Origin: Candidatus Latescibacterota bacterium
Lineage (GTDB): Bacteria > Latescibacterota > UBA2968 > GCA-2709665
Reading direction: 5' to 3'
Assembly: GCA_965222075.1 (NCBI GenBank)
Contig: OZ244937.1
Coordinates: 4,576,001 to 4,640,000 of the forward strand
Length of the DNA: 64,000 bases
The notes below the pieces were generated by a model, which ran no database searches, was not told the origin of the DNA, and was given only the letters and a program-made list of their open reading frames with translations. The first letter of the stretch is position 1; each line of letters starts with the position of its first letter. Positions 7,111-30,183 of this stretch are shown here, piece after piece. Both the position numbers and the translations under genes were made by a program.

Positions 7111-7112
7111 GG

Positions 7113-10602: not shown

Positions 10603-10608
10603 TACCGT

Positions 10609-11361
10609 CTACGAGATCCCCAACTCTTTCAAGGCCTCTTTGGCCGCCATCTGCTGGGCCTCTTTCTTGCTACGTCCTCGCCCAAGCCCCATCCGATCTC
10701 CTCCGATGACCACCTCGACGGTGAAGACCTTGCGGTGGTCCGGCCCTTCCTCCGAATTCACCAGATACCGGGGGTGACCCTGTCCCTCGCTCTGGGTGTG
10801 TTCTAAAAGGAGGCTTTTAAAGTTCAGATATTCTCCATTGGAGATAATTTCTTTGGCATTGAAGAGGAGGGTGCGCTGTATAAACCTTTCCGCCGCCTTC
10901 AGCCCTCCGTCCATATAAATCGCCCCCAGCAAGGCTTCGAATGCATCTCCAATAATGGAGGTCCGGTCCCGGCCTCCGGCAAGGTCCTCTTCGTTGCTTA
11001 AGTAGAGGTAGTCTCCCAGCCCGAGGTCGCGGCCCTTCTGGGCCAATATCACTTTGCTGACCAGCAGCGATTTGATCTGGGTGAGGTCTCCTTCTCTCTT
11101 CTTCTGGAATCTCCGGTAGAGGTTTTCCGTCACGACCAGGTCGAGGACGGCGTCTCCCAGGAACTCCAGGCGCTCGTTGGATTCGATGCTTTCTTCATCG
11201 ATCGTGTAGACATAGGAACGGTGCTTGAGCGCCTGGGTCAGTAGCGCCGGGTCGGAAAAGATGTATCCCAACTTCTCGTGAAGTTCATCCAGCGGTTTTT
11301 CGTCTTCGCTTGCCGTGGTAAGCCAATGCCCGAGCTTATGGAGTGCTTTTCTTAACCGGAT
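10609..11361 (-). CDS. rnc: Ribonuclease III
   Basis: ALKHRSY, NERLEFLGDAVL, DAFEALLGAIY and C-terminal dsRBD. Frame is open upstream of the listed TTG (11271) to an ATC at 11361 preceded by AGGAGG; start uncertain. Confidence 0.95.
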   Translation of the reverse strand: MRLRKALHKLGHWLTTASEDEKPLDELHEKLGYIFSDPALLTQALKHRSYVYTIDEESIESNERLEFLGDAVLDLVVTENLYRRFQKKREGDLTQIKSLLVSKVILAQKGRDLGLGDYLYLSNEEDLAGGRDRTSIIGDAFEALLGAIYMDGGLKAAERFIQRTLLFNAKEIISNGEYLNFKSLLLEHTQSEGQGHPRYLVNSEEGPDHRKVFTVEVVIGGDRMGLGRGRSKKEAQQMAAKEALKELGIS

Positions 11362-11382
11362 GCCTGACTCCTCCTGTCATTT

Positions 11383-12636: not shown

Positions 12637-12670
12637 CGGAGATGCCCTCTTATTGGGGGCTCCAGTCCCC

Positions 12671-12913
12671 CTATTCGCCCAGCCGTTTCTTCAAGTAGCC
12701 GATGGCGTCATTGACGGTTTCGAGCTTCTCGGCGTCTTCGTCGGGAATCTCGATGTCGAATTCCTCTTCAAACGCCATCACCAGTTCAACGGTGTCTAAG
12801 GAATCGGCGCCCAGATCGTCGATAAAGTAGGCATCCGGGGTTACGCTATCTGCATCTACACCGAGCTGATCCACAATCAGATCGCTCACTTTCTGCTGAA
12901 TATTCTCGGCCAT
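12671..12913 (-). CDS. acpP: Acyl carrier protein
   Basis: [20 protein letters not shown]. Confidence 0.98.
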
Positions 12914-13004
12914 TTTTTCCTCCTTTAACTGCGGTCAAACGGCAAACGACACACGGCCCTTCTCCACCCCACGCACCACACCCGGCAAACATCAAACGGG
13001 GAAC

Positions 13005-13072
13005 CGACCCATCCACCCTACCCTGAAACCCTGGCTCTGGCTTCGGAGAGGTGATGTGGGGAGACGTTTCAC
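13005..13072 (-). repeat. Dispersed 68-nt non-coding element, copy 2
   Basis: Reverse complement matches 3495-3562 at 59/68 positions. Confidence 0.85.
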
Positions 13073-13083
13073 CTTTCACCTGG

Positions 13084-13830
13084 TTACATGACCATGCCAC
13101 CGTCCACCACCAGGACCTGCCCGGTGATATAGGCCGCATCGTCCGATACCAGAAACGCTACTGCCGCTGCGATGTCCTCCGGCTTGCCCGGAATACCCAG
13201 CGGAATCTGTTCGAGGAGTTTGTCTTTGACGTCTTGAGAAAGGTCCTGGGTCATTTCCGTGGGGATGAATCCGGGGGCAACCACATTGGCCGTGATCCCA
13301 CGGCCCGCCAGCTCCCGGGCAACGGTTTTGGTGAGTCCGATGAGTCCGGACTTCGATGCCGTATAGTTGACCTGGCCGGGGTTGCCCATCAGGCCGGTTA
13401 TCGACGAGATGTTGACGATGCGCCCGGTGCGTGCACGCATCATAGCACGCGTGGCTGCTTTGACGCAGAGAAACGCGCCCTTGAGGTTGATATCCAAGAC
13501 CGCGTCCCAGTCTTCCTCTTTCATCCGCATCAACAGGCCATCGCGGACGATCCCTGCGTTGTTGACCAGGATGTCGATCTTTCCCCAGGCGTCCAGGACC
13601 GTTTTGAAGAGGGCCTCCACATCGGTGGGGGTCGAGACATCGGCCTTAAGCCCGAGCGCGCGGCACCCCATCCTCTCGATCTGCTCGGCCACCGACCTGG
13701 CGGCGTCCAGGCTGCGACTGGCACATACGGCCACATCGGCCCCCTCGGCGGCCAGACGGAGCGCAATGGCCTTGCCGATGCCCCGAGAACCACCGGTGAC
13801 AACGGCTGTTCTGTCTTTTAATACGCCCAT
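13084..13830 (-). CDS. fabG: 3-oxoacyl-ACP reductase
   Basis: TGGSRGIG, NNAG, YTASK, GQVLVVDGGM; fab operon context. Confidence 0.97.
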   Translation of the reverse strand: MGVLKDRTAVVTGGSRGIGKAIALRLAAEGADVAVCASRSLDAARSVAEQIERMGCRALGLKADVSTPTDVEALFKTVLDAWGKIDILVNNAGIVRDGLLMRMKEEDWDAVLDINLKGAFLCVKAATRAMMRARTGRIVNISSITGLMGNPGQVNYTASKSGLIGLTKTVARELAGRGITANVVAPGFIPTEMTQDLSQDVKDKLLEQIPLGIPGKPEDIAAAVAFLVSDDAAYITGQVLVVDGGMVM

Positions 13831-14813
13831 TTCAGGAGAACGCTGCCCCAGGTATATCCGCCTCCTACGCTCGCCAGGAGAATGTTATCTCTCGGTTTGA
13901 TCCGCCCCTGCTCAACGGCCTCGGAGAGCCCGATGGGGATGGTGCCGGAAGTGGTGTTGGCGTATCGGTCAATGTTGATCAGCACCCTGTCTGCGGGCAA
14001 TTTGAGCCGGTTGACACTGGCGTCGATAATCCGCTTGTTGGCCTGATGGGGCACAAAGAGGGCGATGTCTTCTCCCGTAAGCCCGTTGCGTTCCAGGAGC
14101 TTGACGGATACACCTACCAGGCTGGGGACGGCAAACTTGAAGACCTCCCGCCCCTCCTGATAGATATAGTGCATCTTTTTGTCGACGGTTTCGTGGCTGG
14201 CAGGATGGAGACTTCCCCCCCCGGGTTGGCAGAGATGTTTGCCGCCTGAGCCGTCGATGTGGAAGATAAAATCCTGGATGCCCGATCCATCTTCGGCCGG
14301 TTCCAGGAGCACCGCGCCCGCTCCATCTCCAAACAGGACGCAGGTTTCCCGGTCGGTATAGTCGACGACGGCACTCATCTTATCCGCGCCGATGACGACA
14401 ACCCTTTTATGGGCTCCTGTCTCTACAAATTGACTGCCGACCACGAGGGCGTAGAGAAACCCGGAGCAGGCTGCTGAGAGGTCGAATCCCCAGGCATTTT
14501 TGGCACCCACACTGTCCTGTACCAGGCACGCCGTGGCCGGATACATCATATCGGGCGTTATGGTGGCCACAATAATCAGGTCGATGTCTTTGGCATTTAG
14601 CCCCTTCTGTTCAAGCAGGCTTTCCAGGGCCTGGGCGGCCATATAGGAGGTCCCCAGGCCCTTACCGAGGATGCGCCGTTCTCGGATGCCGGTTCGGGTC
14701 TGGATCCATTCGTCTGAGGTATCGACCATTTTTTCCAGGTCTGCATTGGTCAGCCGTTGCTTGGGAAGATAGCGGGATACTCCGGTAATTGAGACAGAAA
14801 AGGTTTTTTTCAT
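13818..14813 (-). CDS. fabH: Beta-ketoacyl-ACP synthase III
   Basis: DTSDEWIQTRTGI, AACSGF, PHQAN, ANT. Confidence 0.96.
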   Translation of the reverse strand: MKKTFSVSITGVSRYLPKQRLTNADLEKMVDTSDEWIQTRTGIRERRILGKGLGTSYMAAQALESLLEQKGLNAKDIDLIIVATITPDMMYPATACLVQDSVGAKNAWGFDLSAACSGFLYALVVGSQFVETGAHKRVVVIGADKMSAVVDYTDRETCVLFGDGAGAVLLEPAEDGSGIQDFIFHIDGSGGKHLCQPGGGSLHPASHETVDKKMHYIYQEGREVFKFAVPSLVGVSVKLLERNGLTGEDIALFVPHQANKRIIDASVNRLKLPADRVLINIDRYANTTSGTIPIGLSEAVEQGRIKPRDNILLASVGGGYTWGSVLLKWAY

Positions 14814-15027
14814 ACATTACCTGGCGTTTGAAAGGCGCTCTGGGACGCCCACCCTGGTTTTGGGCACAAGCCCGTGTTGGAGCAGGCAGAATCGATGTTC
14901 CACAGATAGGCTCGTGGTCATTCTCGCAAGTTCATGTGAAGCTTTCCTGCCTAATTGTCCTTAAGTTGGAAAAAAGTATGTAAACTATAGACTGTGAAAG
15001 CTTCACACATATTTCTGAGAACGACCA

Positions 15028-15210
15028 CTAAACGGCTTCGCCTTCCATGGCCTCCCGGCTGTTGTAATGGCCGCAGTTGATACAGACCCGATGCGGCCGA
15101 CGCGGCTGCCCGCAGTTGGGGCACTCGGCAAAAGCAGGCATCGAGAGTTTCCAGTGCGTTCGCCGTTTACCGGTCCTGGAATGGGAGCTTCTTCGTTTCG
15201 GGTTTGCCAT
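15028..15210 (-). CDS. rpmF: 50S ribosomal protein L32
   Basis: MANPKRR, CPNCG...PHRVCINCGHY; downstream of yceD. Confidence 0.96.
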   Translation of the reverse strand: MANPKRRSSHSRTGKRRTHWKLSMPAFAECPNCGQPRRPHRVCINCGHYNSREAMEGEAV

Positions 15211-15230
15211 GTTGTTCTCCGAATAGATGT

Positions 15231-15275
15231 AGCATGGCGCATAGCGTGAAAAACAAAAACCCTATGCGCTATGCT
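15231..15275. repeat. Short inverted repeat between yceD and rpmF
   Basis: agcatggcgcatag ... ctatgcgctatgct form a 14-bp stem with one G-U pair on the plus strand. Confidence 0.55.
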
Positions 15276-15291
15276 CTGTGCGTTTGACGTT

Positions 15292-15798
15292 TCACGCTTT
15301 CAACGCCCGCAGCGCTTCCCACCGCGGGTCGATGGTTTCGGCTTTACACGTGCACTGTTTGAGGTTCAGGTTTTCTCCGCAGGAAGGACAGAGCCCCGCG
15401 CACGATTCTTTACAAACGGGGCCGATCGGGACCTCGAGGAGAATATAGTCTTTGACCTCTTTTCCCAGATCGATTTTCCCACGTTCGTCATCCAGCCAGA
15501 TGAGCGTCTCGTCCTCATCGCCTCTTAGGGAGGAGGGGCGCCCCTTCTGGAAAATAAATTGGAAGTGAGACGTCAGGCGCAGGTCGAACGGTTCCAGGCA
15601 GCGGACACAGTCTAAGCGGAGGCGGAAGTTTGTATCTCCACTGGTCGAGAGCGAATCGCCCAGCTTAAAGACCGTCATCCGGGTCCTGATGGGGTGTACG
15701 AACCGCAGGTCCGGATCACCGATATGCAGGTCTTCGGGAGCCTCGGCCCATTCGTATTCGTTGGCCCCTTCTTGCAGTTCACGCAGATCGATTTCCAC
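15292..15798 (-). CDS. yceD: DUF177/YceD metal-binding protein
   Basis: CVRCL, CKESCAGLCPSCG, DPRWEAL; upstream of rpmF. Confidence 0.92.
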   Translation of the reverse strand: MEIDLRELQEGANEYEWAEAPEDLHIGDPDLRFVHPIRTRMTVFKLGDSLSTSGDTNFRLRLDCVRCLEPFDLRLTSHFQFIFQKGRPSSLRGDEDETLIWLDDERGKIDLGKEVKDYILLEVPIGPVCKESCAGLCPSCGENLNLKQCTCKAETIDPRWEALRALKA

Positions 15799-15812
15799 TG
15801 TATTCGCACTCC

Positions 15813-16220
15813 TTAGAATTCGCCGAAGAAAAAGGCGGTTTCCACTGCTCCATTCTCGGGCGAGTCGGAGGCGTGTACCGCATTTTCCTGCACGTTGCTC
15901 CCAAACGCCTTTCGGATGGTCTCCTCCGCAGCTTCAGCCGGATTGGTGGCGCCTACGACTTCCCGGAGAAAGCGGACGGCGTCTTCCCGTTCGAGTACCA
16001 TAGGCACCGCCGGGCCGGATGTCATAAAATCGAGCAGATCGTTGTAAAAAGGCCGTTCCCGGTGGACCGCATAAAACGCTGCGGCCTGCGCCCGGGTGAG
16101 CCTCATCATCTGCATCTCGACGACTTTAAACCCTTTGTTTTCAACCTGTTTGATAATTTCACCGATAACGTTTCGAGAAACGGCATCCGGTTTGATAATC
16201 ATTAACGTACGTTCTGCCAT
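15813..16220 (-). CDS. ndk: Nucleoside diphosphate kinase
   Basis: ERTLMIIKPDAV, GATNP, NAVHASDS. Confidence 0.97.
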   Translation of the reverse strand: MAERTLMIIKPDAVSRNVIGEIIKQVENKGFKVVEMQMMRLTRAQAAAFYAVHRERPFYNDLLDFMTSGPAVPMVLEREDAVRFLREVVGATNPAEAAEETIRKAFGSNVQENAVHASDSPENGAVETAFFFGEF

Positions 16221-16370: not shown

Positions 16371-16399
16371 TTGACAGGAAGGCGGCCTCACCGTTTAAT
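16371..16399 (+). promoter_or_regulatory. Putative sigma70 promoter of the ether-lipid operon
   Basis: TTGACA (16371-16376), 17 nt, TTTAAT (16394-16399). Confidence 0.55.
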
Positions 16400-16520
16400 T
16401 ATATAGGCTTCGGCTTTGAAAATGTCAACAAAATTATGGAAAAGCAGGCAACGGTCAGCAAAAGTCAAAAAGCCGACGGCCGGCTGTCTGATTAAACTTC
16501 TCTTTCTTTTTCAGGTTCCA

Positions 16521-18119
16521 ATGAATTCCATTTCTCACTTCTTAGACGGCAAGGTCCTGCTTGTCACAGGATCGACCGGATTTGTAGCGAAGGGACTGGT
16601 GGAGAAGCTTCTGCGGTGTGTCCCTGATATACAACGGATTTATCTGCTGGTTCGACCCAGACGTCAGTCGAGCGGGACACCCGTTTCGGCGGAGCAGCGG
16701 TTGGCACGGGAGGTGTTCCCCAGCCGTGCTTTTGAGAAGCTGCGGAAACAGCGGGGACCGGCGTTCGACAGCGTCATCCGGCAGAAGGTTGTGGCTGTGG
16801 CCTATGATCTGGCAGTGGATCGGCTGGGCATCGATCCGGAGGTCTATGCGCGGCTTACCCAAGAGGTAGACATTGTGATCAGCGTTGCGGGCACTGTGGT
16901 TTTTGACGAGCGCCTCGACCTCGCCCTGGAAGTGAATACCCTCGGCCCCCAACGGCTGCTTGAGTTTGCAAAGGCCTGCCCAGATGCCATTTTCCTCCAC
17001 GTGTCGACCGCGTACGTCAACGGGCAGCTGACAGGGCGGATTCCCGAAGTGGTGCTCCCGCCGGATCGTACCATTGCAGAACTGATGGGTAATGGTCGGG
17101 CGTGTGTGTACGATCTGGATGCTGAGATTGCGTCAATCCGGCAGCTCACCCGGCAGGTGGAGGAGACGTCACAGCGCTCGGAGCTCCAGGACCGGTTCCA
17201 CCGAATGCTGGAGAAGCAGGACAGGGGCAAACGGGTTACGGCGTATAGGCGGACGCACCAGCTTGAGGCCCTGCGTATCCGGTGGATTAAGAAGCGGCTG
17301 GTGGAGGAGGGTATGGTCAGGGCGCGGCAGCTGGGCTGGCACGACTGTTACACCCTGACGAAGGCTATGGGCGAACAGGTGATCGTCAAGACCCGGGGGG
17401 ATTTGCCCACGGCCATTGTCCGGCCTTCGATTATCGAAAGCAGCCTGCTGGATCCCGAACCGGGGTGGCTGGAGGATTTGAAGGTGGCCGATCCGCTGAT
17501 CTCCTACTACAGCAAGGGGCGGCTGTCCGATTTTCCCGCGAATCCCGATGTTGTGGTCGATGTGATTCCCGTGGACTTTGTGGTCAATGCGATTATTGCG
17601 GCTCTTCCGAGGGTGCGGGAGGAGAAGGAGATCAAAGTTTACCAGGTGGCCACCGGGTCTGAGAACCCGATGCGACTGGGGGAGATGTTTGAGCTGGTTT
17701 ACGACTATTTTAAGCGGAACCCCATGCAGGATAAAGCCGGACGGCCCATTGAAGTGCACCAGTGGAATTTCCCCAGCCGGGAGACGTTTCGACGCAACTG
17801 CCGCTTAAAATACAAACTTCCCCTTCATACGCTGGGCTGGTTGATGGACCACATCCCACTGTCTTCGCGGTGGAGGCGAAAGGTCTCGATGCTGGAAGCG
17901 ACATTTGACCGGATATTCGCCCTGAGCGAGATTTACAGTTCCTATACCCACCTGAATTGCGAGTTCGAGACGGAGAATACCCGCCGGCTTTATGAAGAAC
18001 TAAATCCTGAAGACCAGGAGATCTTTAACTTCGACGTGACCCGAATCGAATGGCAGGACTACATCCAGAACATCCACATCCCGGGGTTACAGCGCCACGT
18101 GTTGAAAACCCACACTTGA
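16521..18119 (+). CDS. Fatty acyl-CoA/ACP reductase (FAR, alcohol-forming; NAD_binding_4 plus Sterile domain)
   Basis: TGSTGFVAK..VEKLLR, HVSTAYVNG, GWHDCYTLTKAMGEQ (YxxxK), IVRPSII..PEPGW, DVIPVDFVVNA, FNFDVTRIEWQDY..HIPGL. ATG at 16521. Confidence 0.92.
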   Translation: MNSISHFLDGKVLLVTGSTGFVAKGLVEKLLRCVPDIQRIYLLVRPRRQSSGTPVSAEQRLAREVFPSRAFEKLRKQRGPAFDSVIRQKVVAVAYDLAVDRLGIDPEVYARLTQEVDIVISVAGTVVFDERLDLALEVNTLGPQRLLEFAKACPDAIFLHVSTAYVNGQLTGRIPEVVLPPDRTIAELMGNGRACVYDLDAEIASIRQLTRQVEETSQRSELQDRFHRMLEKQDRGKRVTAYRRTHQLEALRIRWIKKRLVEEGMVRARQLGWHDCYTLTKAMGEQVIVKTRGDLPTAIVRPSIIESSLLDPEPGWLEDLKVADPLISYYSKGRLSDFPANPDVVVDVIPVDFVVNAIIAALPRVREEKEIKVYQVATGSENPMRLGEMFELVYDYFKRNPMQDKAGRPIEVHQWNFPSRETFRRNCRLKYKLPLHTLGWLMDHIPLSSRWRRKVSMLEATFDRIFALSEIYSSYTHLNCEFETENTRRLYEELNPEDQEIFNFDVTRIEWQDYIQNIHIPGLQRHVLKTHT

Positions 18120-18201
18120 AACTGAGATTTGAGCGCTTGCAGGATCCCATGGGGCTGAAGCGTGGGAGATGTGGGTTTTTTTGTTTTTCAGGAACGTTTT
18201 G

Positions 18202-20190
18202 ATGGACCGTCGCTATTCTGGCTCCACACCTCTGCTTGACCTGCATATCAACGAACTGATCAACGATTCGGATCAGATGCTGGTTATCTACGACCAGATG
18301 GCGCAGGAGATTATTGAGTTGGGACGCCCAGAGGGGTATTTTGAGAGCTGGGACACCGAGGCGCTGAGGTGGCCGCAAAGCCGGACCGAGGCCGGACCGA
18401 TTGACCTGGAGGGTCTGCAGGCGCGGGTGGGGTTGGTGGATGCCTTTTACCAGGGTGTTCCCAGGCTTCGGGACGAGCGGTTGGCCGAGGCTTACGAGCA
18501 GTTCAGCCGTCTGGCAGCCGCCTACCAGAAAGGGAACCGGATCTACCGGCAGGTCAAGGCGCAGTTCACCGCGCGGGGCGCCGGGACAGAGCAAGATTTT
18601 CTCCAGCTTTATCAGACCCTCTACATCGAGGCGCTGGCAAAGGGGGACCTCTTTGCCCCGGATGTGGGGGAGGCGGCCCTGGCGCAGGCGAGGGTCTCCC
18701 GGGTACCTCTTTCACACGCACAGGTCGTGGCCGAGGCCCTCTCGACGGTTGTCTTAGACGACGATCTCAGGTGGGAGGTTCTCTATTCCTGTACGGTGGA
18801 CGGGGTCACGGTCGAGGCCTCTCTGCGCGATCTGCTTCGGGATGTGGCCCAGCGGACTTTAGACCACATTGCGGCCGGCGAACTTTTAGCGACCCGTTAC
18901 AATACGTACAACAACCTGGGCTGGTTCGGTAGTTCGGTCTGGAAGGTCGTTGTGGGTGCCGAGTTGTTGTTGCATCGGCTCGCCGCCCGGCCCAATGGAG
19001 ATGCGGGGGAACAGGAGGCCGTCCGGTCGGATATCCGGCTTGCGCAGGGCATGCTGATCGCGTTTTTCCAGGCCCACCGCGAAGACCCTGCCCGGTTGAA
19101 GCCAGAGAAGTACTGGTACGGACAGGATTACAGCTATTTGACCCGGGATATGATCGACCTGGGGGTTCGGCTGGTGGGCCGCGTCAACCGGCTGGTTCGG
19201 GATGCGAACCGCTTTGGTGGGGAGGGTGGATTGGAGGCGCTTGCGCTGCCCCCCCTCTTAGCCGGGGAGGCCCGCGGGCGGTTTGTGGAATATCCCCAAG
19301 TTGGCAGACGGGCAACACTCTCTCCCGGGCAGCGGGCGTTCAGGCTCGGACGCTGGGCGCTGGCCTCCTGGAAGACAGGCCGGCGCAGGGTGCGGTTGGC
19401 CAGATCGGTGCTGGAAGAGGATCGTCGGTTGGAGCGGGCGTGGCAGGAGTGGCTGAGGTGGGCCGAGGCCACGCTTCGAATTTTTGACATTCAGGTCAAG
19501 ATCTGTATCGATCCCCAGTTTTTCCGGATTGCCAGAGAGCTGGATCTGGACAGTGGAAAGCGGAAGGTCCTTTTTTTGCCGGCCCACCAGAGTCTGCTGG
19601 ACCATCCGATTATGTATCACGTGCTGGGCTCCTCCGAACTGATGGCTGCGATGGGCTGGGAAAAGCCGAGGCCCTGCGTGCTTCTGGGTCGCACCGGGCT
19701 GTCCAGGGCGGGCGTGAGGATCGGCCCCTGGGACTTTACGATGTTTGGCGTCTCTTCGGAGACCTTCGACTGGATGCTGGAAGAGGTGGATGGTTATGTG
19801 ACGCGCGAACGCGTCGGTGGGACAGGCTCTACGGCCATGAGGGTTGTGGCGGCGCTGGGAAAACGCCCGGGCATCATCTATCCTATGGGGACAACGCCCG
19901 CTTTCGGCATCCAACTCTTTCCACTCCAGCATGGTATGTTCGCCCAGCTGCCCCATGATGTGGTCATTGTGCCCATCGTTTTTCGAGGCGCCCACTCCCT
20001 CTGGCCCAAGTGTCCCAAGGGGAATCTGAACATCAATCCGGGCGTGGTCGAGGCCGTGGTTGCTCCCCCGATGCTGGGTGAGACCACGCTGCTGCCGAAG
20101 CGGCGGCGGCTGCGGATTCAGCTGGAGGCCGCAAATCTCTTTCAGGCGGTTCACATTTCTACGCTGTTGAATCCCGAGCCTTCGGGGTAA
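18202..20190 (+). CDS. Glycerolipid acyltransferase (PlsC/LPLAT domain at C-terminus) with unknown N-terminal domain; candidate DHAP acyltransferase
   Basis: LFLPAHQSLLD (HX4D), IIYPMGT (block III-like), IVPIVFRG (block IV); lies between FAR and AGPS. Confidence 0.75.
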   Translation: MDRRYSGSTPLLDLHINELINDSDQMLVIYDQMAQEIIELGRPEGYFESWDTEALRWPQSRTEAGPIDLEGLQARVGLVDAFYQGVPRLRDERLAEAYEQFSRLAAAYQKGNRIYRQVKAQFTARGAGTEQDFLQLYQTLYIEALAKGDLFAPDVGEAALAQARVSRVPLSHAQVVAEALSTVVLDDDLRWEVLYSCTVDGVTVEASLRDLLRDVAQRTLDHIAAGELLATRYNTYNNLGWFGSSVWKVVVGAELLLHRLAARPNGDAGEQEAVRSDIRLAQGMLIAFFQAHREDPARLKPEKYWYGQDYSYLTRDMIDLGVRLVGRVNRLVRDANRFGGEGGLEALALPPLLAGEARGRFVEYPQVGRRATLSPGQRAFRLGRWALASWKTGRRRVRLARSVLEEDRRLERAWQEWLRWAEATLRIFDIQVKICIDPQFFRIARELDLDSGKRKVLFLPAHQSLLDHPIMYHVLGSSELMAAMGWEKPRPCVLLGRTGLSRAGVRIGPWDFTMFGVSSETFDWMLEEVDGYVTRERVGGTGSTAMRVVAALGKRPGIIYPMGTTPAFGIQLFPLQHGMFAQLPHDVVIVPIVFRGAHSLWPKCPKGNLNINPGVVEAVVAPPMLGETTLLPKRRRLRIQLEAANLFQAVHISTLLNPEPSG

Positions 20191-20296
20191 AACAGGGGCC
20201 AGGGGTCGGGTATCAGGAGTCAGTAAAGGCAAACACCGATGAACGGACGGAGGTCCATCCGGAGGGGATGATGGTTGATATCAGGGGAAATTTATC

Positions 20297-22156
20297 ATGG
20301 TAGAAGCAATAGCTTTGGCGATTGTTGTGGTAGCAGTTTTTGCAATATACCTGGTGAAGCGGCGGCGTTCCTATCGGGACTTAGACGCTTTTTACGACCT
20401 TTCTGAAGGAGAGCGATTTGCCCACAAATGGGGGTATACGGATACCCGGTTTGAGTTTGAGGACCCCAGGACCGTTAAGGTCACCGGGAGCAGATATCCA
20501 ATATCGGGTTACCGGATGCCGTATCTGGTTTCCTTCTTAGAGGATACGCTCGATATCTCTGTCCATCCGGACGATATGAATGTGGAGGTGGAAGACCAGG
20601 AGGTGCCCGAACCGAATACCAACGGTGGGTTTCTGGCTTCTGTTCAGGCCAAATTCAAAGCGGACCAATATTCACTCGATGCAAAGGAGCGCCTGATTCA
20701 CAGCCACGGACAGTTGAGCGTGGACGAAATTTATCGGGTGCTGTATTCGTCATCGCTGAAACGGATAGTCGATCTGGTCTTTTATCCTGAGGGAGAAGAT
20801 GATGTCAGGGCGGTTATCGAACTGGCGAACGAGCACAATGTGTGCTTAGTGCCCTATGGAGGCGGGACGAACGTAAGCGGCGCGCTGGCCTGTCCGGTTG
20901 GAGAACAGCGGATGATTGTGTCGGTGGATTTGAGGCGCATGAACCGAATTCTGTGGGTTGATAAGGAGAATTATCTGGCCTGCGCTGAAGCGGGCATCCT
21001 GGGCAAGCAGCTGGAGGTGGGGCTTGAGGCAAAGGGGTACACGTCGGGGCACGATCCGGACAGTGTTGAGCTTTCGACTCTGGGGGGATGGATTGCGACC
21101 AACGCCAGCGGGATGAAAAAGAACAGATACGGCAATATCGAAGAGATCGTGCTTGAGGCCACGCTGGTTACTCCTACGGGGGAGATTGAAACGAAGCATG
21201 TAACGCCGAGGAATTCAACCGGCATCCAGCCCAGGTCTTTTCTGTTCGGCAGCGAGGGCAATTTTGGCATTATTACCAAGGCGGTGATCAAGATCCATCT
21301 CCTGCCGGAGGCGCGCAAATACGGGTCGCTTGTGTTCCCCTCTTTTGAGAAGGGCGTCGGCTTCTTAAAGGCATTGCGTCAGACGGGCGGGTTGCCCGCA
21401 AGTATCCGTCTGGGGAGCAATAAGGAGCTTCGATTCGCGCAGGCTTTAAAACAGGAACCGACATTTTTGAAGAGGACTAAAGAGAAGGTGCAGGCATTCT
21501 TTATGCAGAAGATCCTGAGCTTCGATCCGATGCAGATGGTCGTCTGCACCATTGTGATGGAGGGTTCAAAGGAGGAGGTGCGCCAGCAGGATAAGACGAT
21601 CTTCAGTCTGGCTAAAAAGCACGGCGGCATGAGCGCCGGCGCGAGCATCGGAAAACGGGGGTATGCGCTGACGTTCGGGATTGCTTATATTCGGGACTTC
21701 GTCAACGAGCTTCAGATCCTCGGGGAGACGTTTGAGACGTCGGTGCCGTGGGATAAGATCCACCAGGTGTGCCAGGCCGTGCAGGAAGAATTAGATGAAC
21801 AGGCGGTAAGGTATCACATACCGGGCAAGCCTTATCTCCAGTACCGTGTTCCGCAGACTTACCACACAGGGGTTTGCATTTATTTTACGATGGGTTTTTG
21901 TGGGAAAGGGCTGGAAAGACCGGATGAGGTTTTTCACAATATCGAGCGGCGCCTGCGGCAGGTTATTCTCGACAACGGCGGCTCTTTGTCCCACCACCAC
22001 GGCGTAGGCAAGATCCGGCAAGGCTTCCTGCCCCAGGTTCAGACTGAAAACACCATCCATGTTTTGCGTCAGACTAAAAAGGCGATGGATCCCAACAACA
22101 TCTTTGGAATCAGAAACGGCGTTTTTAATGCGTTCCCTGATGATTTATTAATGTAA
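20297..22156 (+). CDS. Alkyl-dihydroxyacetonephosphate synthase (AGPS/ADAS), FAD-linked
   Basis: WGYTD, PYGGGTNV, MNRILWVD, GHDPDSVELSTLGGW, ASGMKKNRYGNIE, GSEGNFGIIT, IAYIRD, FETSVPWD, CIYF, GGSLSHHHGVGK, all AGPS-type motifs; N-terminal TM helix. Confidence 0.93.
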   Translation: MVEAIALAIVVVAVFAIYLVKRRRSYRDLDAFYDLSEGERFAHKWGYTDTRFEFEDPRTVKVTGSRYPISGYRMPYLVSFLEDTLDISVHPDDMNVEVEDQEVPEPNTNGGFLASVQAKFKADQYSLDAKERLIHSHGQLSVDEIYRVLYSSSLKRIVDLVFYPEGEDDVRAVIELANEHNVCLVPYGGGTNVSGALACPVGEQRMIVSVDLRRMNRILWVDKENYLACAEAGILGKQLEVGLEAKGYTSGHDPDSVELSTLGGWIATNASGMKKNRYGNIEEIVLEATLVTPTGEIETKHVTPRNSTGIQPRSFLFGSEGNFGIITKAVIKIHLLPEARKYGSLVFPSFEKGVGFLKALRQTGGLPASIRLGSNKELRFAQALKQEPTFLKRTKEKVQAFFMQKILSFDPMQMVVCTIVMEGSKEEVRQQDKTIFSLAKKHGGMSAGASIGKRGYALTFGIAYIRDFVNELQILGETFETSVPWDKIHQVCQAVQEELDEQAVRYHIPGKPYLQYRVPQTYHTGVCIYFTMGFCGKGLERPDEVFHNIERRLRQVILDNGGSLSHHHGVGKIRQGFLPQVQTENTIHVLRQTKKAMDPNNIFGIRNGVFNAFPDDLLM

Positions 22157-22168
22157 GTAGGCCATAAA

Positions 22169-22975
22169 ATGCCTCAAGAAAAGACAGTGATCATAACAGG
22201 GGCTTCTTCGGGGCTTGGTGCATCGCTGGCCCTGGAATTCGCCAAGGCCGGAGCGAATCTTGGGCTGTTTGCGCTGGACGAGGAAGGGCTGATGGAAACC
22301 GCAGGTAAGTGTCGGGAGCGCGAGGCCCGCGTTCTTACGGCTGCCGGAGATGTGGGAAGGCCAGAAGACTGTGAACAGCTGGTTGAAGATACGGTTTCCC
22401 AATTTGGGGGGGTGGACTACCTGATTGCCTGCGCCGGTGTGAGTATGTGGGCGAAATTCGAAGAGATTGAGGACGTATCCATATTCCGCAAGCTTATGGA
22501 GACAAATTACCTTGGCATTGTCAACTGCGTATATTACGCCCTTCCGCATTTGAAGGTGCGCAGCGGGATGATTGTGGCCATCTCCTCGATCCAGGGCAAG
22601 ATAGGCGTTCCGTTCCATACAGGTTATGTCGCCTCTAAGCACGCTGTGCAGGGTTTTTTCGAGTCTCTGCGAGCCGAGCTCAGCGGGAGCGGCGTGAATG
22701 TCCTGACCGTATTGCCCCACTGGTTGAGGGGGACCAATTTGCGGAAGAGCGCTTTTGGGAAAGATGGGAGCTCTATGGGAGCGTCGGAGAAAGAACACAG
22801 CAAGGAGTCCATCTCTCTTGAGGAATGCTGTCAGGCCATCCTCAAAGCAATCGAAAAGAGGAAAAGGGAGTTGGTCATTCCTTCAAAGCTCAAGGTCCTT
22901 CCGTGGTTAAATCTGATCAATCCCAAGATTGTAGCGTTTTTCGTTAAGGGGGCGATGGAACAGCAGGACAGGTAG
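22169..22975 (+). CDS. SDR oxidoreductase, DHRS7B/PexRAP-like; candidate acyl/alkyl-DHAP reductase
   Basis: ITGASSGLG, METNYLG, IVAISSIQGK, YVASKHA..FFESLRAEL. Confidence 0.8.
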   Translation: MPQEKTVIITGASSGLGASLALEFAKAGANLGLFALDEEGLMETAGKCREREARVLTAAGDVGRPEDCEQLVEDTVSQFGGVDYLIACAGVSMWAKFEEIEDVSIFRKLMETNYLGIVNCVYYALPHLKVRSGMIVAISSIQGKIGVPFHTGYVASKHAVQGFFESLRAELSGSGVNVLTVLPHWLRGTNLRKSAFGKDGSSMGASEKEHSKESISLEECCQAILKAIEKRKRELVIPSKLKVLPWLNLINPKIVAFFVKGAMEQQDR

Positions 22976-23003
22976 AGCGTCGCCGCATGCATAGGGTCCC
23001 CCC

Positions 23004-25063
<2,060 letters not shown>

Positions 25064-27636: not shown

Positions 27637-30183
27637 ATGAAGCTTTATTTTCTGGGAGGCGCCGACGAGGTCGGCGCGTCGTGCACGCTGGTTGAGATCG
27701 AGGGGCGCCGCATCCTGGTGGATGCAGGCATCCGGATGGGGGCCGCGCCCGGGGCGCACCTGCCCAATTTCTCGGTGTTAGACGAGGTGGGCTCGCCCGA
27801 GGAGGTGCTTTTAACCCACGCGCATACGGACCACACCGGGGCGCTGCCGGTGCTGGTTCCCGGGCTGCCTGCGGGGGTGCGCATCCGGTGTACGCCGCCC
27901 ACGCAGGCGATTACACGGGTGCTGCTGACCGATGCGGTCAAGATTATGGAGCAGCGAGGGGAGGGAGACGGGGAGTTGCCGCTTTATCCGCCCGAAGCAG
28001 TCGATGTGAGCCTGGGTCGGATGGCCTACGTGCCCTTTCTGTCCACGGTGCCCATTTGCGACGGGGCGCTGAAGGCGACCTGGATTCCGGCCGGGCACAT
28101 CCTGGGGGCGGCGTCGATTTATATCGAGGGGCGGCGGGAGAGCCTGCTGATGACGGGGGATGTGTCGGTGGCCAACCAGCAGACGATTTCGGGGATGGCC
28201 GTGCCCCAGTGCCGTCCGGATGTGGTGGTGATGGAGTCGACCTACGGAAACCGGCAGCACGCAGACCGGGCGCAGCAGGAGACGGCATTGGCCCTGCGGG
28301 TGGCCGAGGCGATCCAGGCCGGGGGCAAGGTGCTGATCCCCGCCTTTGCCGTGGGCCGCGCACAGGAGGTGATCCTGGTTCTGTCCCGGGCGATGCGGAG
28401 GGGGCATGTGCCCGCCTTCCCGGTGTTTGTAGATGGCATGGTCCGGTCGGTGAATGCGGTTTACACGGCTTTTCCTGAGGATCTGGCCCCGCCGCTGCGC
28501 CGCCGGGTGTTGAAAGGGGAGGATGCGTTTTATTCGGAGTCTGTTTCGGCAGTGGCGGTTCCGGCAGATCGAGAGCAGGTACTGGAGGGCCCGCCCTGCT
28601 GTATTGTGGCGAGTTCGGGGATGCTGATTGGAGGGGCGTCGAGTTTTTACGCACAGCGGCTGGTGGGGGGTGCAGAAAACTTGATCGCGATTACAGGGTA
28701 TCAGGATGAGGAGTCGCCGGGACGGGCGTTGCTGGCGCTGGCTCAGGCGCCGGAGGGGGCGGGGAGGGCGCTGACGCTGAACGGGCAGCGGGTGGGGGTG
28801 GCATGCCAGGTGGAGACCTATTCCCTGTCTGCGCATGCAGACAGCGGAGAGCTGGCCTCGCTGGTGAGGCGGCTCTCGCCCCGGTCGGTTTACTTAGTGC
28901 ATGGGGACGGGGACGCGCGGGCTGCGCTGGCGTCGGTCCTGGACCTGCACCTGCCCGAGGGGGTGCACCTGCCGGAGAACGGCGGGGTTTACACGGTGGA
29001 GGAGGCGGTGTCGAGACAGAAGCGGCGCTACGGCCGCCTGGTGTCTGTGCAGGGGATTTCGGGAGGGCGGACGGCCGATGCGGAGGCGTTGGACGAGGTG
29101 CGGGCCTACCTGCTGGAGACGGGGATGAAAGGCGCGCTGCGGGCGCAGGAACTGGCCGAGATCTGGCACGGGACGGAGGGGGTGGGACCGGCCGAGGCGG
29201 AGGGCTTCAAGGCACTTTTGGACGAACCGCAGACGGCGTTTGTTGCAGACCATCGCCGGCCCTATCTCTATCACGTCGCTGAGGAAACGACGGAGGAGGC
29301 GGGCCTGATGGAGATGAACGAGGCCCGGGTGCGGATTCAGGGGGCTTTTCCGCCCGAGGCGGGGCTTTTCAAGTGCAGCGCGTATGTCGAAGAGGGGGTC
29401 TACGAACTGGCGTTTCACTTTCCGGATGTGATCGAGGCGCAGTACGGGGAGCAGATCCGGGCGCTGGAGGCAGAGACGGGGTGGACTCTCCGGTTGCGGG
29501 AGACGGCCCACCAGGGGCGGCTGTTTGAAGAGGCCCTGGCGGCCGTGCCGGAAGGGACTACACCGTTGAGGGCGCCGGCGCTCCGGCTGGAGAAGCGCGA
29601 GGTGGCGGTGGCGGTGGTGGTATCAGAGGCCTTAGGAGCGGACTGGGAAGGGCTGGCCGAGGCGGCCGGGCAGCGCTTTTGCGAGACGACGGGGTACAGG
29701 CTCCGGCTGGTCCAGCCGGGTGAGAAAGGGCCTCCACCCCCTGCCGAGGCCCCGGACGAAGCGTGGGAGATCAACCGCGCGTATGCAGAGATCCGGGGGG
29801 CTTTTCAAGGGGGACAGCACACGCCCTATAGGATCGGTCTCAAGTCGGACGCCGGAGGGTCGTATATCGAGACGGCGTTTATCTCGCCGGCGGTGGGGGG
29901 GCGCTACCGGGACCTGCTGGAGCGGCTGTCGGCGCGGATCGGGTGGTCGATCCGGGTGCGGGAGTCGGCCAACCAGGAGCAACTTGCGCAGGAGGCGCGG
30001 CGGATCACGTCGGAGGCGTGCACGGTGCGGTGCGCACCGAGGTTTTTCGCGGGCGAAGGGCGCGTGGTGATGCCGGTGGTACAGGCGCCCGATGAGGCAG
30101 AGCAGGAGACGCTTCGGGAGGCGTTTCGGGAAGCGACGGGGTTTGAGATCGAGTGGGAGGAGGCAAAGAGAGGCCGGGGGTAA
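27637..30183 (+). CDS. MBL-fold beta-CASP ribonuclease (CPSF73/TTHA0252-like) with long repetitive C-terminal extension
   Basis: GGADEVGASC, THAHTDH, AGHILG, TGD, ESTYG, PAFAVGRAQE, SSGML, SAHAD, VHGD. Confidence 0.9.
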   Translation: MKLYFLGGADEVGASCTLVEIEGRRILVDAGIRMGAAPGAHLPNFSVLDEVGSPEEVLLTHAHTDHTGALPVLVPGLPAGVRIRCTPPTQAITRVLLTDAVKIMEQRGEGDGELPLYPPEAVDVSLGRMAYVPFLSTVPICDGALKATWIPAGHILGAASIYIEGRRESLLMTGDVSVANQQTISGMAVPQCRPDVVVMESTYGNRQHADRAQQETALALRVAEAIQAGGKVLIPAFAVGRAQEVILVLSRAMRRGHVPAFPVFVDGMVRSVNAVYTAFPEDLAPPLRRRVLKGEDAFYSESVSAVAVPADREQVLEGPPCCIVASSGMLIGGASSFYAQRLVGGAENLIAITGYQDEESPGRALLALAQAPEGAGRALTLNGQRVGVACQVETYSLSAHADSGELASLVRRLSPRSVYLVHGDGDARAALASVLDLHLPEGVHLPENGGVYTVEEAVSRQKRRYGRLVSVQGISGGRTADAEALDEVRAYLLETGMKGALRAQELAEIWHGTEGVGPAEAEGFKALLDEPQTAFVADHRRPYLYHVAEETTEEAGLMEMNEARVRIQGAFPPEAGLFKCSAYVEEGVYELAFHFPDVIEAQYGEQIRALEAETGWTLRLRETAHQGRLFEEALAAVPEGTTPLRAPALRLEKREVAVAVVVSEALGADWEGLAEAAGQRFCETTGYRLRLVQPGEKGPPPPAEAPDEAWEINRAYAEIRGAFQGGQHTPYRIGLKSDAGGSYIETAFISPAVGGRYRDLLERLSARIGWSIRVRESANQEQLAQEARRITSEACTVRCAPRFFAGEGRVVMPVVQAPDEAEQETLREAFREATGFEIEWEEAKRGRG

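Follow-up and report, generated by a model that had tools for sequence, protein, structure and literature searches.

Within the analysed window, a 64,000-nt stretch of a single Latescibacterota contig, a gene encoding an alkyl-dihydroxyacetonephosphate synthase (AGPS) was found as the third of four genes in the order FAR-X673-AGPS-SDR, separated by intergenic gaps of 49, 106 and 12 nt. The coordinates of the genes, of the aligned catalytic codons and of a putative N-terminal membrane anchor are listed in Table 1. The likely start of FAR is the ATG at 16521, which lies within a longer TTG-started ORF (16416..18119), the database relatives of X673 begin at its residue M12 (18202), and the SDR gene starts 13 nt past the AGPS stop.

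Table 1. Features of the AGPS locus, with positions in the window
Feature	Position	Strand	Evidence
Fatty acyl-CoA reductase (FAR), first operon gene	16521..18119	+	Pfam, match to 7eoz
X673, uncharacterised "hypothetical" protein, 662-673 aa	18169..20190	+	AF2/structure match to PlsC/GPAT; no Pfam/NCBIfam match at default
Alkyl-dihydroxyacetonephosphate synthase (AGPS), 619 aa	20297..22156	+	Pfam, phmmer against PDB, 44-sequence alignment, AF2 overlay
Putative N-terminal signal anchor of AGPS, residues 1-24 (MVE, 17 uncharged hydrophobic residues, KRRR)	20297..20368	+	Hydropathy, AF2, orthologue conservation
Arg371 codon, aligned with guinea-pig Arg419	21407..21409	+	4bby alignment, invariance; PDB 4bc7 title names Arg419His mutant
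Tyr529 codon (CIYF), aligned with catalytic Tyr578	21881..21883	+	4bby alignment, invariance; PDB 4bca title names Tyr578Phe mutant
His566-His567-His568 codons, aligned with His615-617	21992..22000	+	4bby alignment, invariance
Classical short-chain dehydrogenase/reductase (SDR)	22169..22975	+	Pfam adh_short, NCBIfam NF004825

The AGPS ORF is uninterrupted and its product begins with MVEAIALAIVVVAVFAIYLVKRRR. The Pfam domains FAD_binding_4 (4.4e-38) and FAD-oxidase_C (1.5e-34) were detected, and the phmmer search against PDB sequences returned guinea-pig AGPS (4bby, E 1.7e-147, with residues 44-607 of the query aligned to 95-656 of the chain) and, at E 1.2e-89, the Dictyostelium enzyme (2uuu), while the next family, the D-lactate/glycolate dehydrogenases, reached only ~1e-22, its match opening near query residue 158. 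The non-AGPS matches start at query 146-168, as against query 44 for 4bby, and the N-terminal domain specific to AGPS, which extends from the WGY block to around residue 150 and has no counterpart in the D-lactate/glycolate dehydrogenases, is present. The three sequence blocks on which the initial annotation had based its comparison with animal AGPS were all located in the ORF (WGYTDTRF, residues 45-52; TGSRYPISG, 63-71; MNRILWVDKEN, 215-225), with W45 and G46 invariant in an alignment of 44 sequences. Against 4bby, Y529 in the CIYF motif pairs with Tyr578, H566-H568 with His615-617 and R371 with Arg419, and all five residues are invariant in 44/44 aligned sequences; for the roles of Tyr578, the His615-617 loop and Arg419, we take those assigned in the structural work on guinea-pig AGPS. 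The AF2 model (pLDDT 90.1) was superposed on 4bby_C with TMt 0.95 and an rmsd of 1.5 Å over 569 columns at 42% identity, and on Dictyostelium 2uuu with TMt 0.88; the identity to mammalian AGPS is 41-42%. Domain content, the match to 4bby and the fold overlay all agree, and, judged from its sequence, the ORF is a bona fide AGPS (EC 2.5.1.26; VAO/PCMH flavoprotein superfamily), the match being far above chance. The original reading of the gene as an AGPS, with its likeness to the animal enzyme along the whole catalytic length and its catalytic Tyr and His triplet, is thereby upheld, and acyl-for-alkyl exchange on acyl-DHAP is predicted for the enzyme.

The flanking reductases were assigned to families. 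FAR carries NAD_binding_4 (4.3e-64) and a C-terminal Sterile domain (3.3e-18), which is the eukaryote-type FAR layout, and matches the solved fatty acyl-CoA reductase 7eoz at E 4.2e-93. The SDR matches Pfam adh_short (8.4e-47) and NCBIfam NF004825 (294 bits, cut-off 215), and its best solved relatives are 11beta-HSD1 structures (~5e-26). In addition, a natural fusion protein of 998 aa (P0531) joins AGPS (51-632) to an SDR (743-973) sharing 35% identity with the operon SDR (E 6e-41). The SDR is proposed to act as an alkyl/acyl-DHAP reductase. The lipid products are probably alkyl rather than vinyl ethers; a search for PF10520 (CarF/PEDS1 desaturase) gave no match in the genome itself and none in the control genomes either, so that absence of the desaturase is not shown by it.

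The arrangement is conserved. The order FAR-X673-AGPS-SDR was observed in 18 of 23 related loci, with FAR immediately 5' of X673 likewise in 18, and AGPS is accompanied by SDR in 22, the SDR lying 3' of AGPS, either adjoining or within about 1.5 kb. Among 168 genomes of the phylum, 124 have AGPS and 132 have X673; 123 have both, 9 have X673 alone, 1 has AGPS alone and 35 have neither, counts that are not independent since genomes of one phylum are kin. Both genes are near-universal in families f1, f2 and f4, while the ten other families (39 genomes) gave one AGPS match and two X673 matches. As a point against the proposed operon pathway, AGPS and X673 are separated by megabases in f4 genomes such as G128. 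No X673 turned up in the Poribacteria and Gammaproteobacteria genomes that contain loci L003 and L004, both of which carry this AGPS, although the completeness of these assemblies is not given and absence is thus not shown. In RNA libraries (four sponge metatranscriptome runs from one study), contigs with at least 99% identity cover parts of all four genes, with DNA carry-over possible; the 5' end of AGPS (20108-21003) is uncovered, so the contigs are uninformative on its start codon. Scans of 15800-23400 gave 6 sigma-70 promoter sites (3.5±2.4 in shuffles) and 8 terminator sites (8.4±2.8 in shuffles), neither count being above the shuffles, and the transcript ends are therefore not defined by the scan.

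The second gene, X673, encodes a protein whose relatives are "hypothetical" in almost all annotations and invisible to Pfam. No Pfam or NCBIfam match was obtained at default thresholds, and the score against PF01553 was 13.3 bits (cut-off 23; E 0.072; residues 464-605), which is below the gathering score and leaves X673 a divergent outlier that belongs to the family by structure and motifs only. Against PDB sequences, phmmer and a 42-sequence profile returned nothing meaningful, the best hit being a pentapeptide-repeat protein at E 1.4. The AF2 model (pLDDT 87.9, pTM 0.91) comprises an all-helical N-terminal domain (~1-370) and a PlsC/GPAT-fold acyltransferase domain (~374-657). PlsC (5kym) was the top Foldseek match (E 2.4e-4, TMt 0.61), the top matches being of the same family, and VIA-align gave Z 17.5 for PlsC (rmsd 2.9, 221/232 residues), 13.1 for GPAT1 and 11.7 for squash GPAT. 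The HX4D motif is intact, with H462 in 42/42 sequences and, at position 467, Asp in 36 sequences and Glu in the other 6; R497 is kept in 41/42, and Y560, T564 and P591 in 42/42. X673 thus shares with PlsC/GPAT (LPLAT) enzymes (5kym, 8e50, 1iuq) the fold of ~374-657 and the HX4D, Arg and (Y/F)PxGT blocks, but differs from them in its 12-15% identity, its score below the Pfam threshold, its large unmatched helical N-terminal domain and a genomic context that links it to AGPS, not to general phospholipid synthesis. On the evidence of the model, X673 is a member of the PlsC/GPAT-fold acyltransferases, though a very divergent one.

X673 is proposed to be the acyltransferase that forms acyl-DHAP, the DHAP acceptor being suggested by the operon and by the co-occurrence with AGPS; since the nearest solved structure, that of PlsC, belongs to an enzyme that acylates the sn-2 position, DHAP as the substrate of X673 is a guess from context. 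The protein could instead be an ether-specific PlsC that acylates the sn-2 position of 1-alkyl-glycerol-3-phosphate, with acyl-DHAP supplied by another enzyme, as its best structural match, the LPA acyltransferase PlsC, and its feature neighbours in the Atlas, which are lysophospholipid acyltransferase clusters, would suggest. However, three canonical PF01553 acyltransferases are already encoded elsewhere in the genome, the sn-1 GPAT-type enzymes are strong structural matches too, and AGPS requires acyl-DHAP, which the ordinary bacterial PlsB/PlsX-PlsY/PlsC routes are not known to produce. The acyltransferase beside or fused to FAR in M. xanthus and eukaryotes is also of the GNPAT type, according to the published passages on these systems. 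An sn-2 role is considered rather unlikely, and acylation of DHAP is the reading followed below.

The relationship of this AGPS to the eukaryotic enzyme was addressed with a careful maximum-likelihood tree of 61 rows, which span every clade of a 93-row quick tree together with named Myxococcota-clade sequences; of the 149 representatives, the 69 that were partial or of low coverage are not in the tree, nor are most of the 80 of nearly full length. The clade of the AGPS under study is monophyletic (100/100) and nested with sequences from Neomarinimicrobiota and Gammaproteobacteria MAGs. It falls in an enclosing clade of 46 rows (100/100) that holds all named bacterial rows (many rows being unnamed) and the diatom fusion proteins, apart from the PTS2-type eukaryotic AGPS of Pharyngomonas, Lagenidium, Chromera, Eimeria and Diaphorina. 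The identity to the three full-length named eukaryotes is 48/43/42% for named Myxococcota AGPS against 42/39/38% for the AGPS encoded in the window, and in comparisons with Pharyngomonas, Lagenidium and Chromera the former score 573/499/450 bits, the latter 477/411/388.

The suggestion of the initial annotation that this enzyme may be informative about the origin of the eukaryotic one was consequently not borne out, with the clade outside the PTS2-type eukaryotes and Myxococcota AGPS closer to them. That the Latescibacterota type is the closest bacterial kin of eukaryotic AGPS, or its donor lineage, is very unlikely. In favour of such kinship are its very strong resemblance to animal AGPS over the full length and the separate FAR and acyltransferase genes, an arrangement that published passages also report for Holozoa, but the tree position and the higher identities and bit scores of the Myxococcota type oppose it. 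Moreover, a published analysis, in its passages on the subject, treats AGPS as phylogenetically uninformative and argues a myxobacterial origin from FAR-GNPAT, and a sequence comparison of X673 with GNPAT-type domains brought out no link outside the HX4D block: its 42-sequence profile, searched through 149 AGPS-family representatives, among them FAR-AT-AGPS fusions but no named GNPAT, gave one 43-residue match around HX4D, with E 1.8e-4 in that small set.

Eukaryotic AGPS is imported through a PTS2 leader, a nonapeptide of the R/K-L-x5-H/Q-L type, and binds peripherally to the peroxisomal membrane. PTS2-like leaders are seen at this position in Pharyngomonas (RLQVTLGHV, P0249) and Lagenidium (RMRSVVSHL, P0274), whereas no such nonapeptide was found in the N-terminus of the Latescibacterota AGPS, which has a hydrophobic helix followed by a basic cluster instead. 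The 19-residue Kyte-Doolittle window at residue 2 reaches 2.81, and AGPS is the only one of the four operon proteins with an uncharged membrane-like segment, the 2.25 window of FAR containing two Asp. In the AF2 model, residues 2-27 form a free helix (pLDDT 87-88), which is followed by a low-confidence or disordered hinge at about 25-28. With the helix defined as an uncharged run of 17-25 residues with a 17-residue Kyte-Doolittle mean of at least 1.9 ahead of the WGY motif, it was present in 100 of the 120 closest homologues, and it is encoded in frame behind a start codon in all 23 genome loci (L001-L023). The helix is missing from the other 20 homologues, among them P0082, which has a truncated N-terminus; the enzyme thus does not depend on the anchor.

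The topology was judged from hydropathy and from the positive-inside rule (von Heijne). Ahead of the helix, Lys or Arg occurs in 0/100 helix-bearing homologues; within 12 residues past it, at least one is found in 99/100 and at least two in 86/100. The lack of K/R before the helix and its presence after fit a signal anchor of N-out/C-in orientation, with the enzyme in the cytoplasm, better than a signal peptide that is cleaved off, and this charge pattern across orthologues favours a cytoplasm-facing, tethered AGPS. A membrane anchor in place of the eukaryotic leader and a catalytic domain facing the cytoplasm, both put forward in the initial annotation, are accordingly features that the homologues favour as well.

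Cleavage of the helix as a Sec/Tat signal peptide, with a periplasmic AGPS, is highly improbable. Some orthologues do have signal-peptidase-like small residues past the helix (e.g., "...AKRARAED" and "...RRAFASK"), but a Lys/Arg n-region is absent in all 100 helix-bearing homologues, no twin-arginine motif precedes the helix, the uncharged run of 17-25 residues exceeds the hydrophobic cores typical of signal peptides, which are shorter, and the basic cluster comes after the helix; the substrates (acyl-DHAP and the acyl-CoA/ACP-derived alcohol) and the NAD(P)H-linked partners are also cytoplasmic, and the partner enzymes of the operon have no export signal. It can hardly be, either, that the helix is untranslated and the protein starts at a downstream GTG (codon 20, 20354), soluble like the 590-aa homologues: GTG does occur at codons 11 and 20, and 20/120 homologues begin without a helix just ahead of the YDLSEGER block, but GGGGA sits 8-12 nt 5' of the ATG at 20297, GTG 20354 has no upstream purine-rich stretch, the frame is open through the start codon and the hydrophobic run in 23/23 loci, and in these loci the helix sequence diverges while its hydrophobicity and trailing K/R are kept, indicating a translated and selected segment.

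Taken together, the gene probably supplies the AGPS reaction of an ether-lipid operon of four genes (FAR, X673, AGPS and SDR) in a sponge-associated Latescibacterota bacterium, with AGPS tethered by a non-cleaved anchor. Family membership, fold, catalytic residues, the conserved helix with its charge pattern, gene order and co-occurrence are observed, whereas all enzymatic activities, the substrates of X673 and SDR, the membrane orientation and the resulting lipid are those we infer. In the proposed pathway, FAR would reduce acyl-CoA or acyl-ACP to fatty alcohol and X673 would acylate DHAP to 1-acyl-DHAP. AGPS, with FAD and Tyr529, His566-568 and Arg371, would then exchange the acyl group for the alcohol to give 1-O-alkyl-DHAP, the keto group of which would be reduced by the SDR to give 1-O-alkyl-sn-glycerol-3-phosphate. 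General phospholipid enzymes would act next, the three canonical PF01553 acyltransferases being encoded elsewhere. Residues 1-24 of AGPS would serve as an N-out/C-in signal anchor which, with a linker of about 20 residues, may keep the catalytic domain on the inner membrane's cytoplasmic side, the site of both lipid substrates. A further-reaching reading, in which X673 founds a new family of DHAP acyltransferases and forms, together with FAR, anchored AGPS and SDR, a complete, self-contained and oxygen-independent bacterial route to 1-O-alkyl-glycerolipids, is put forward tentatively, as somewhat short of probable.

Non-isoprenoid alkyl glycerol ethers of bacteria serve as environmental biomarkers and abound in sponges, yet which organisms make them, and by which pathways, is poorly established. 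The locus offers a compact set of four genes with which the AGPS route of an uncultured phylum can be tested, and gives the widespread "hypothetical" family X673 a probable role. It also suggests that AGPS is targeted to membranes by a built-in signal anchor in bacteria, as against peroxisomal import in eukaryotes, and it leaves the current view of the origin of eukaryotic AGPS as it is. If the further-reaching reading is true, a whole class of Latescibacterota, with relatives in Gemmatimonadota, Handelsmanbacteria and others, would be unrecognised makers of the monoalkyl glycerol ethers of sponges and sediments, and the AGPS anchor would be where the pathway nucleates at the membrane.

AGPS homologues of Latescibacterota are already known (2025, 2026). 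In passages of two homology screens (PMC11868695; bioRxiv 10.64898/2026.06.23.733905), agps homologues are reported from Latescibacterota, Poribacteria, Marinisomatota and other MAGs. The Black Sea study gives Agps matches in 67/92 Latescibacterota MAGs (PMC11868695), compared with 124/168 genomes here, and the sponge-symbiont preprint gives agps and "standalone elbD" matches in Latescibacterota MAGs (bioRxiv 10.64898/2026.06.23.733905). These passages present the same genes as the present locus, as BLAST matches only; operon structure, acyltransferase partner and anchor are not described in them, and the word "transmembrane" has 0 occurrences in the sponge preprint. A literature search on bacterial AGPS with a transmembrane segment returned host-cell and ferroptosis papers only. 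In the passages of the literature that bear on it, the anchor, the split operon and the divergent acyltransferase were thus not found described.

From the WGY block onward, the Latescibacterota enzyme shares its domain organisation with mammalian AGPS (4bby, 4bca, 4bc7) up to the C-terminus, and it has the equivalents of Tyr578, His615-617 and Arg419. Unlike the mammalian enzyme, it is bacterial and operon-encoded, and lacks the PTS2 presequence and about 94 N-terminal residues, in place of which it has the 24-residue hydrophobic helix and KRRR.

As a precedent in M. xanthus, passages of the published account describe an operon of MXAN_1676 (AGPS), MXAN_1675 (FAR+GNPAT, "FARAT") and MXAN_1674 (NAD-dependent enzyme), and deletion of MXAN_1676 blocked ether-lipid production by that pathway (PMC13012113). 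The M. xanthus AGPS is ~42% identical to the human one according to part of the preprint of PMC13012113, the same as the value for Latescibacterota and mammalian AGPS. The clustering of AGPS, FAR, acyltransferase and NAD(P) reductase is common to both systems as far as these passages describe it, but in Latescibacterota FAR is encoded apart from the acyltransferase, the gene order differs, the acyltransferase appears to belong to a different, Pfam-invisible family with a helical N-domain of ~370 aa, and the reductase is a classical SDR in place of an epimerase/dehydratase-family protein. The two AGPS clades are 47% identical, and the anchor of the Latescibacterota type is absent from the three named Myxococcota homologues and present in only 12/120 proteins of the Myxococcota clade.

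Finally, the FAR-acyltransferase-AGPS fusions of diatoms (Thalassiosira profunda P0255; Chaetoceros cluster P0266) physically link the same three activities, but do so in a single eukaryotic polypeptide of 2,200-2,700 aa, with an AT domain of the ordinary PTHRS..D type and in a separate clade of the tree.

The AGPS (alkyl-dihydroxyacetonephosphate synthase; N-terminus MVEAIALAIVVVAVFAIYLVKRRR) is an ordinary member of its family apart from two more unusual features: a predicted signal anchor shared across its clade, and a partner acyltransferase whose family is unannotated. Pfam assigned FAD_binding_4 and FAD-oxidase_C domains. In a search against the sequences of solved structures, guinea-pig AGPS (4bby) was the top match (E 1.7e-147, query 44-607 against chain 95-656), followed by Dictyostelium AGPS (2uuu, 1.2e-89), and the next family, D-lactate/glycolate dehydrogenases, was 120 orders of magnitude weaker and aligned only from the FAD domain onward. 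Tyr529 (in CIYF), His566-568 and Arg371 align to Tyr578, His615-617 and Arg419 of the guinea-pig enzyme, and all five were invariant across a 44-homologue alignment with identity down to 37%. The roles of these residues are presumably those assigned in the guinea-pig structure work; Tyr578Phe and Arg419His mutants are named in titles of its PDB entries. The AlphaFold2 model (pLDDT 90.1, pTM 0.87) superposed on 4bby_C with a target-normalised TM-score of 0.95 (rmsd 1.5 Å over 569 columns, 42% identity) and on Dictyostelium AGPS with a TM-score of 0.88 (29% identity). The animal-like blocks, catalytic Tyr and His triplet described in the initial annotation were thus confirmed, and the structural overlay it had proposed agreed with both known enzymes.

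AGPS residues 2-20 had a Kyte-Doolittle 19-residue mean of 2.81, the maximum over all four operon proteins, and the sole other segment above 2 was an Asp-containing core strand of the fatty acyl-CoA reductase (FAR). AlphaFold placed a helix at residues 2-27 (pLDDT 87-88) and a hinge at 25-28 with pLDDT <50, so in the model the helix is not packed on the enzyme body. Among the best 120 database matches (63-95% identical to this AGPS), a 17-25-residue hydrophobic run with no charged residues preceded the WGY block in 100, ending on average 23.5 residues ahead of WGY. None of these 100 had Lys or Arg ahead of the run; within 12 residues after it, at least one was found in 99 and at least two in 86. 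The 20 helix-less homologues start right before the conserved YDxSEGER block; P0082, which belongs to these 20, has a truncated N-terminus. A start codon with an in-frame helix was present at all 23 related loci with AGPS of this type (Latescibacterota, one Poribacteria, one Gammaproteobacteria MAG and one unclassified), where the helix sequence varies and hydrophobicity and trailing basic residues are retained. In the neighbouring Myxococcota-containing AGPS clade, such a helix was found in only 12 of 120 proteins, and in none of the three named as Myxococcota/Myxococcales.

By the positive-inside rule, the absent basic n-region, long hydrophobic core and C-terminal basic cluster suggest an N-out/C-in signal anchor, which would leave the catalytic domain in the cytoplasm. 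The same pattern does not fit a Sec or Tat signal peptide. Of the cytoplasm-facing, membrane-tethered AGPS initially proposed, the helix and its basic cluster hold as conserved features, and the cytoplasm-facing topology is a prediction from the charge pattern.

Features of the operon and its surroundings, with the extent of RNA-library contigs
Feature	Position	Strand	Description	RNA-library contig cover
Conserved housekeeping block	9724..16220	-	upstream of operon, divergent: lipoate-protein ligase, RNase III (rnc), fabF, fabG, fabH, yceD, nucleoside-diphosphate-kinase-like ORF (ndk)	
FAR	16521..18119	+	operon gene 1; NAD_binding_4 and 'Sterile' C-domain; solved reductase 7eoz, 4.2e-93	16624-17859
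X673	18169..20190	+	operon gene 2; 662-673 aa; no Pfam or NCBIfam family	18303-19975
AGPS	20297..22156	+	operon gene 3; 619 aa	21100-21973
Classical SDR	22169..22975	+	operon gene 4; NF004825, 294 bits; nearest solved relatives 11beta-HSD1	22179-23000
bioD, bioA			downstream of operon	
RNase J-like gene	27637..30183	+	848-aa metallo-beta-lactamase / beta-CASP / RMMBL protein	

The four operon genes are co-directional, with intergenic gaps of 49, 106 and 12 nt, in a single-contig genome of 5.36 Mb; among named relatives, the closest is a Candidatus Latescibacterota MAG (95% protein identity). The divergent block contains fab genes, so the operon directly adjoins a fatty-acid synthesis cluster. 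The order FAR, X673 (an uncharacterised protein), AGPS and SDR (short-chain dehydrogenase/reductase) was observed at 18 of the 23 loci, and an SDR downstream of AGPS, adjacent or within ~1.5 kb, at 22; the Gammaproteobacteria sequence stops just past AGPS. A functional link between AGPS and SDR is supported by a natural fusion of the two in P0531 (998 aa, Myxococcota-type clade; SDR at 743-973, 35% identical to the operon SDR, E 6e-41); this protein was called on one metagenome (Logan) contig and may be a merged call. Another homologue, P0040 (1060 aa), joins a Latescibacterota-type AGPS (67% identical over 1-612) to an aminotransferase-type region (PF00155, PF01212, PF01053) and may be a fused gene call. 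Public runs containing this stretch include sponge metagenomes and metatranscriptomes. Contigs from four sponge metatranscriptome runs of one study (at least 99% identity) cover parts of all four operon genes and leave the 5' end of AGPS uncovered; they may reflect expression or DNA carry-over. Farther downstream, the RNase J-like gene lies in the most GC-rich part of the window (0.673 at 28-30 kb); its Pfam domains stop near residue 435, and the long C-terminal extension beyond them matches no Pfam family.

Nearly all of the 174 database relatives of X673 are labelled hypothetical. For its AlphaFold2 model (42 homologues, pLDDT 87.9, pTM 0.91), the best solved matches in Foldseek were PlsC (5kym), 7zkq_T (from a complex I assembly intermediate; presumably tafazzin), squash GPAT, human GPAT1 and PatA. 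In an exhaustive VIA-align search, model residues 374-657 matched PlsC with Z 17.5 (221/232 residues, rmsd 2.9 Å), followed by GPAT1 (Z 13.1), 7zkq_T (Z 12.4) and squash GPAT (Z 11.7); residues 1 to ~370 form a helical domain with generic helical-bundle matches only (Z at most 9.8), which are common for helical models. In the HX4D motif (numbering from M12), H462 was present in 42/42 homologues and position 467 was Asp in 36 and Glu in 6; R497 was conserved in 41/42, and Y560-P-x-G-T564 and P591 in 42/42. In a language-model atlas, 28 of 30 neighbours belonged to PF01553 clusters. Taken together, the structure matches, conserved blocks and atlas neighbours identify the modelled X673 as a very divergent LPLAT-fold acyltransferase. 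The database entry begins at M12 and lacks the first 11 codons of the ORF (18169..18201, MWVFLFFRNVL); the true start is probably 18202.

The X673 profile gave a single local match, 43 residues around HX4D within the AT (acyltransferase) section of one FAR-AT-AGPS fusion, so that a diverged GNPAT and an independent recruit both stand as possible origins. Three ordinary PF01553 acyltransferases are encoded elsewhere in the genome, which argues for X673 as an additional enzyme linked to the AGPS pathway and hence favours a putative DHAP acyltransferase; to our knowledge, DHAP acylation is absent from ordinary bacterial phospholipid synthesis. A serious competing reading, though in our view a rather unlikely one, is an ether-specific sn-2 acyltransferase.

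Across 168 genomes of the phylum (AGPS at E <=1e-100, X673 profile at E <=1e-30; totals include this genome, family counts leave it out), AGPS was found in 124 (families f1 21/21, f2 29/31, f3 1/3, f4 71/76, others 1/39) and X673 in 132 (f1 21/21, f2 31/31, f3 3/3, f4 74/76, others 2/39). Both were present in 123, X673 only in 9, AGPS only in 1 and neither in 35, a pattern among kin genomes rather than a statistic. AGPS and X673 lie far apart in many f4 genomes (e.g., at 0.99 and 5.19 Mb in G128), so it is in f1/f2 that this class-wide gene pair is arranged as an operon. Five other genomes were reached via the loci; three contained X673, and the search gave no match to it in the Poribacteria (L003) and Gammaproteobacteria (L004) assemblies. 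A second, divergent AGPS, 45-47% identical to this one, occurs in a few Latescibacterota genomes (G038:C96, G151:C4, G094:C428); in G038 it (7959-9662) directly follows an X673 homologue (5851-7818), so X673 pairs with another AGPS clade too.

At 50% clustering, the entire Latescibacterota-type clade fell into one representative, with the next relatives 51-46% identical. Named representatives were bacterial (Gammaproteobacteria MAG P0242, Neomarinimicrobiota P0244, Pigmentibacter P0340), eukaryotic (Pharyngomonas P0249, Lagenidium P0274, Chromera P0285, Eimeria P0296, partial Diaphorina P0322) and diatom (Thalassiosira and Chaetoceros, FAR-AT-AGPS fusions of 2,200-2,700 aa); named members of the P0245 clade were Myxococcota, 'Deltaproteobacteria', Sericytochromatia, Leptospirales and Gemmatimonadota. 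In an unrooted ML tree (61 rows, 573 columns, LG+C20+F+G4 PMSF, ultrafast bootstrap and SH-aLRT), the clade of this AGPS with homologue P0241 was supported at 100/100, and its sister was the Neomarinimicrobiota / Gammaproteobacteria-MAG group (92/87). A 46-row clade (100/100) took in all named bacterial rows along with unnamed rows and the diatom fusions; the PTS2-type eukaryotic rows lay outside it, and a Dictyostelium-like/Pigmentibacter clade on the far side of the tree. In BLASTP, Pharyngomonas, Lagenidium and Chromera matched the named Myxococcota protein P0482 better (48/43/42% identity, 573/499/450 bits) than they did this AGPS (42/39/38%, 477/411/388 bits), so the strong likeness of this AGPS to animal AGPS, judged from these comparisons, is that of a slowly evolving enzyme and not of special kinship. 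The suggestion that it is informative about the origin of the eukaryotic enzyme was accordingly not upheld, and the tree called for in the initial annotation placed it among bacterial rows, apart from the PTS2-type eukaryotes.

Long single-chain proteins (1,300-2,700 aa) in which a FAR domain and an HX4D acyltransferase are joined to a C-terminal AGPS (P0255, P0263, P0265, P0266, P0270, P0272, P0276, P0282, P0284, P0287, P0291 and others; two named as diatoms, Thalassiosira profunda and the Chaetoceros debilis cluster) formed their own 100/100 clade beside the bacterial AGPS clades, not with PTS2-type eukaryotic AGPS. The available text of PMC13012113 describes FAR-GNPAT fusions and no triple fusion that includes AGPS. 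In the available text of the same pathway-origin study (10.1101/2025.10.10.681575; PNAS version PMC13012113), AGPS sequences are considered to lack sufficient phylogenetic signal, and a myxobacterial origin of the pathway is argued from FAR-GNPAT and PEDS1.

AGPS in Latescibacterota is already in print: Agps homologues were reported in 67/92 MAGs (PMC11868695), and sponge-symbiont members with agps and 'standalone elbD' matches were described, the phylum being termed newly linked to ether lipids (10.64898/2026.06.23.733905). Full-text searches of the accessible main texts returned neither an N-terminal membrane anchor in bacterial AGPS nor a split FAR / X673 / AGPS / SDR operon or X673 itself; 'transmembrane' has 0 occurrences in the available text of 10.1101/2025.10.10.681575, PMC13012113 and 10.64898/2026.06.23.733905.

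FAR, X673, AGPS and SDR would provide four steps of an alkyl ether lipid route, with X673 proposed for DHAP acylation. We know of no oxygen requirement in any of these steps, and CarF/PEDS1 was not detected in this genome by a search run without a positive control, which together make an alkyl rather than a vinyl ether lipid the likely product. The four genes lie in a compact operon suited to heterologous testing. PTS2-like nonapeptides were observed in eukaryotic AGPS representatives (RLQVTLGHV in Pharyngomonas, RMRSVVSHL in Lagenidium), consistent with the initial claim that the anchor stands in place of a peroxisomal targeting leader. Where the eukaryotic enzymes have a PTS2-like nonapeptide, this AGPS has a hydrophobic helix instead.
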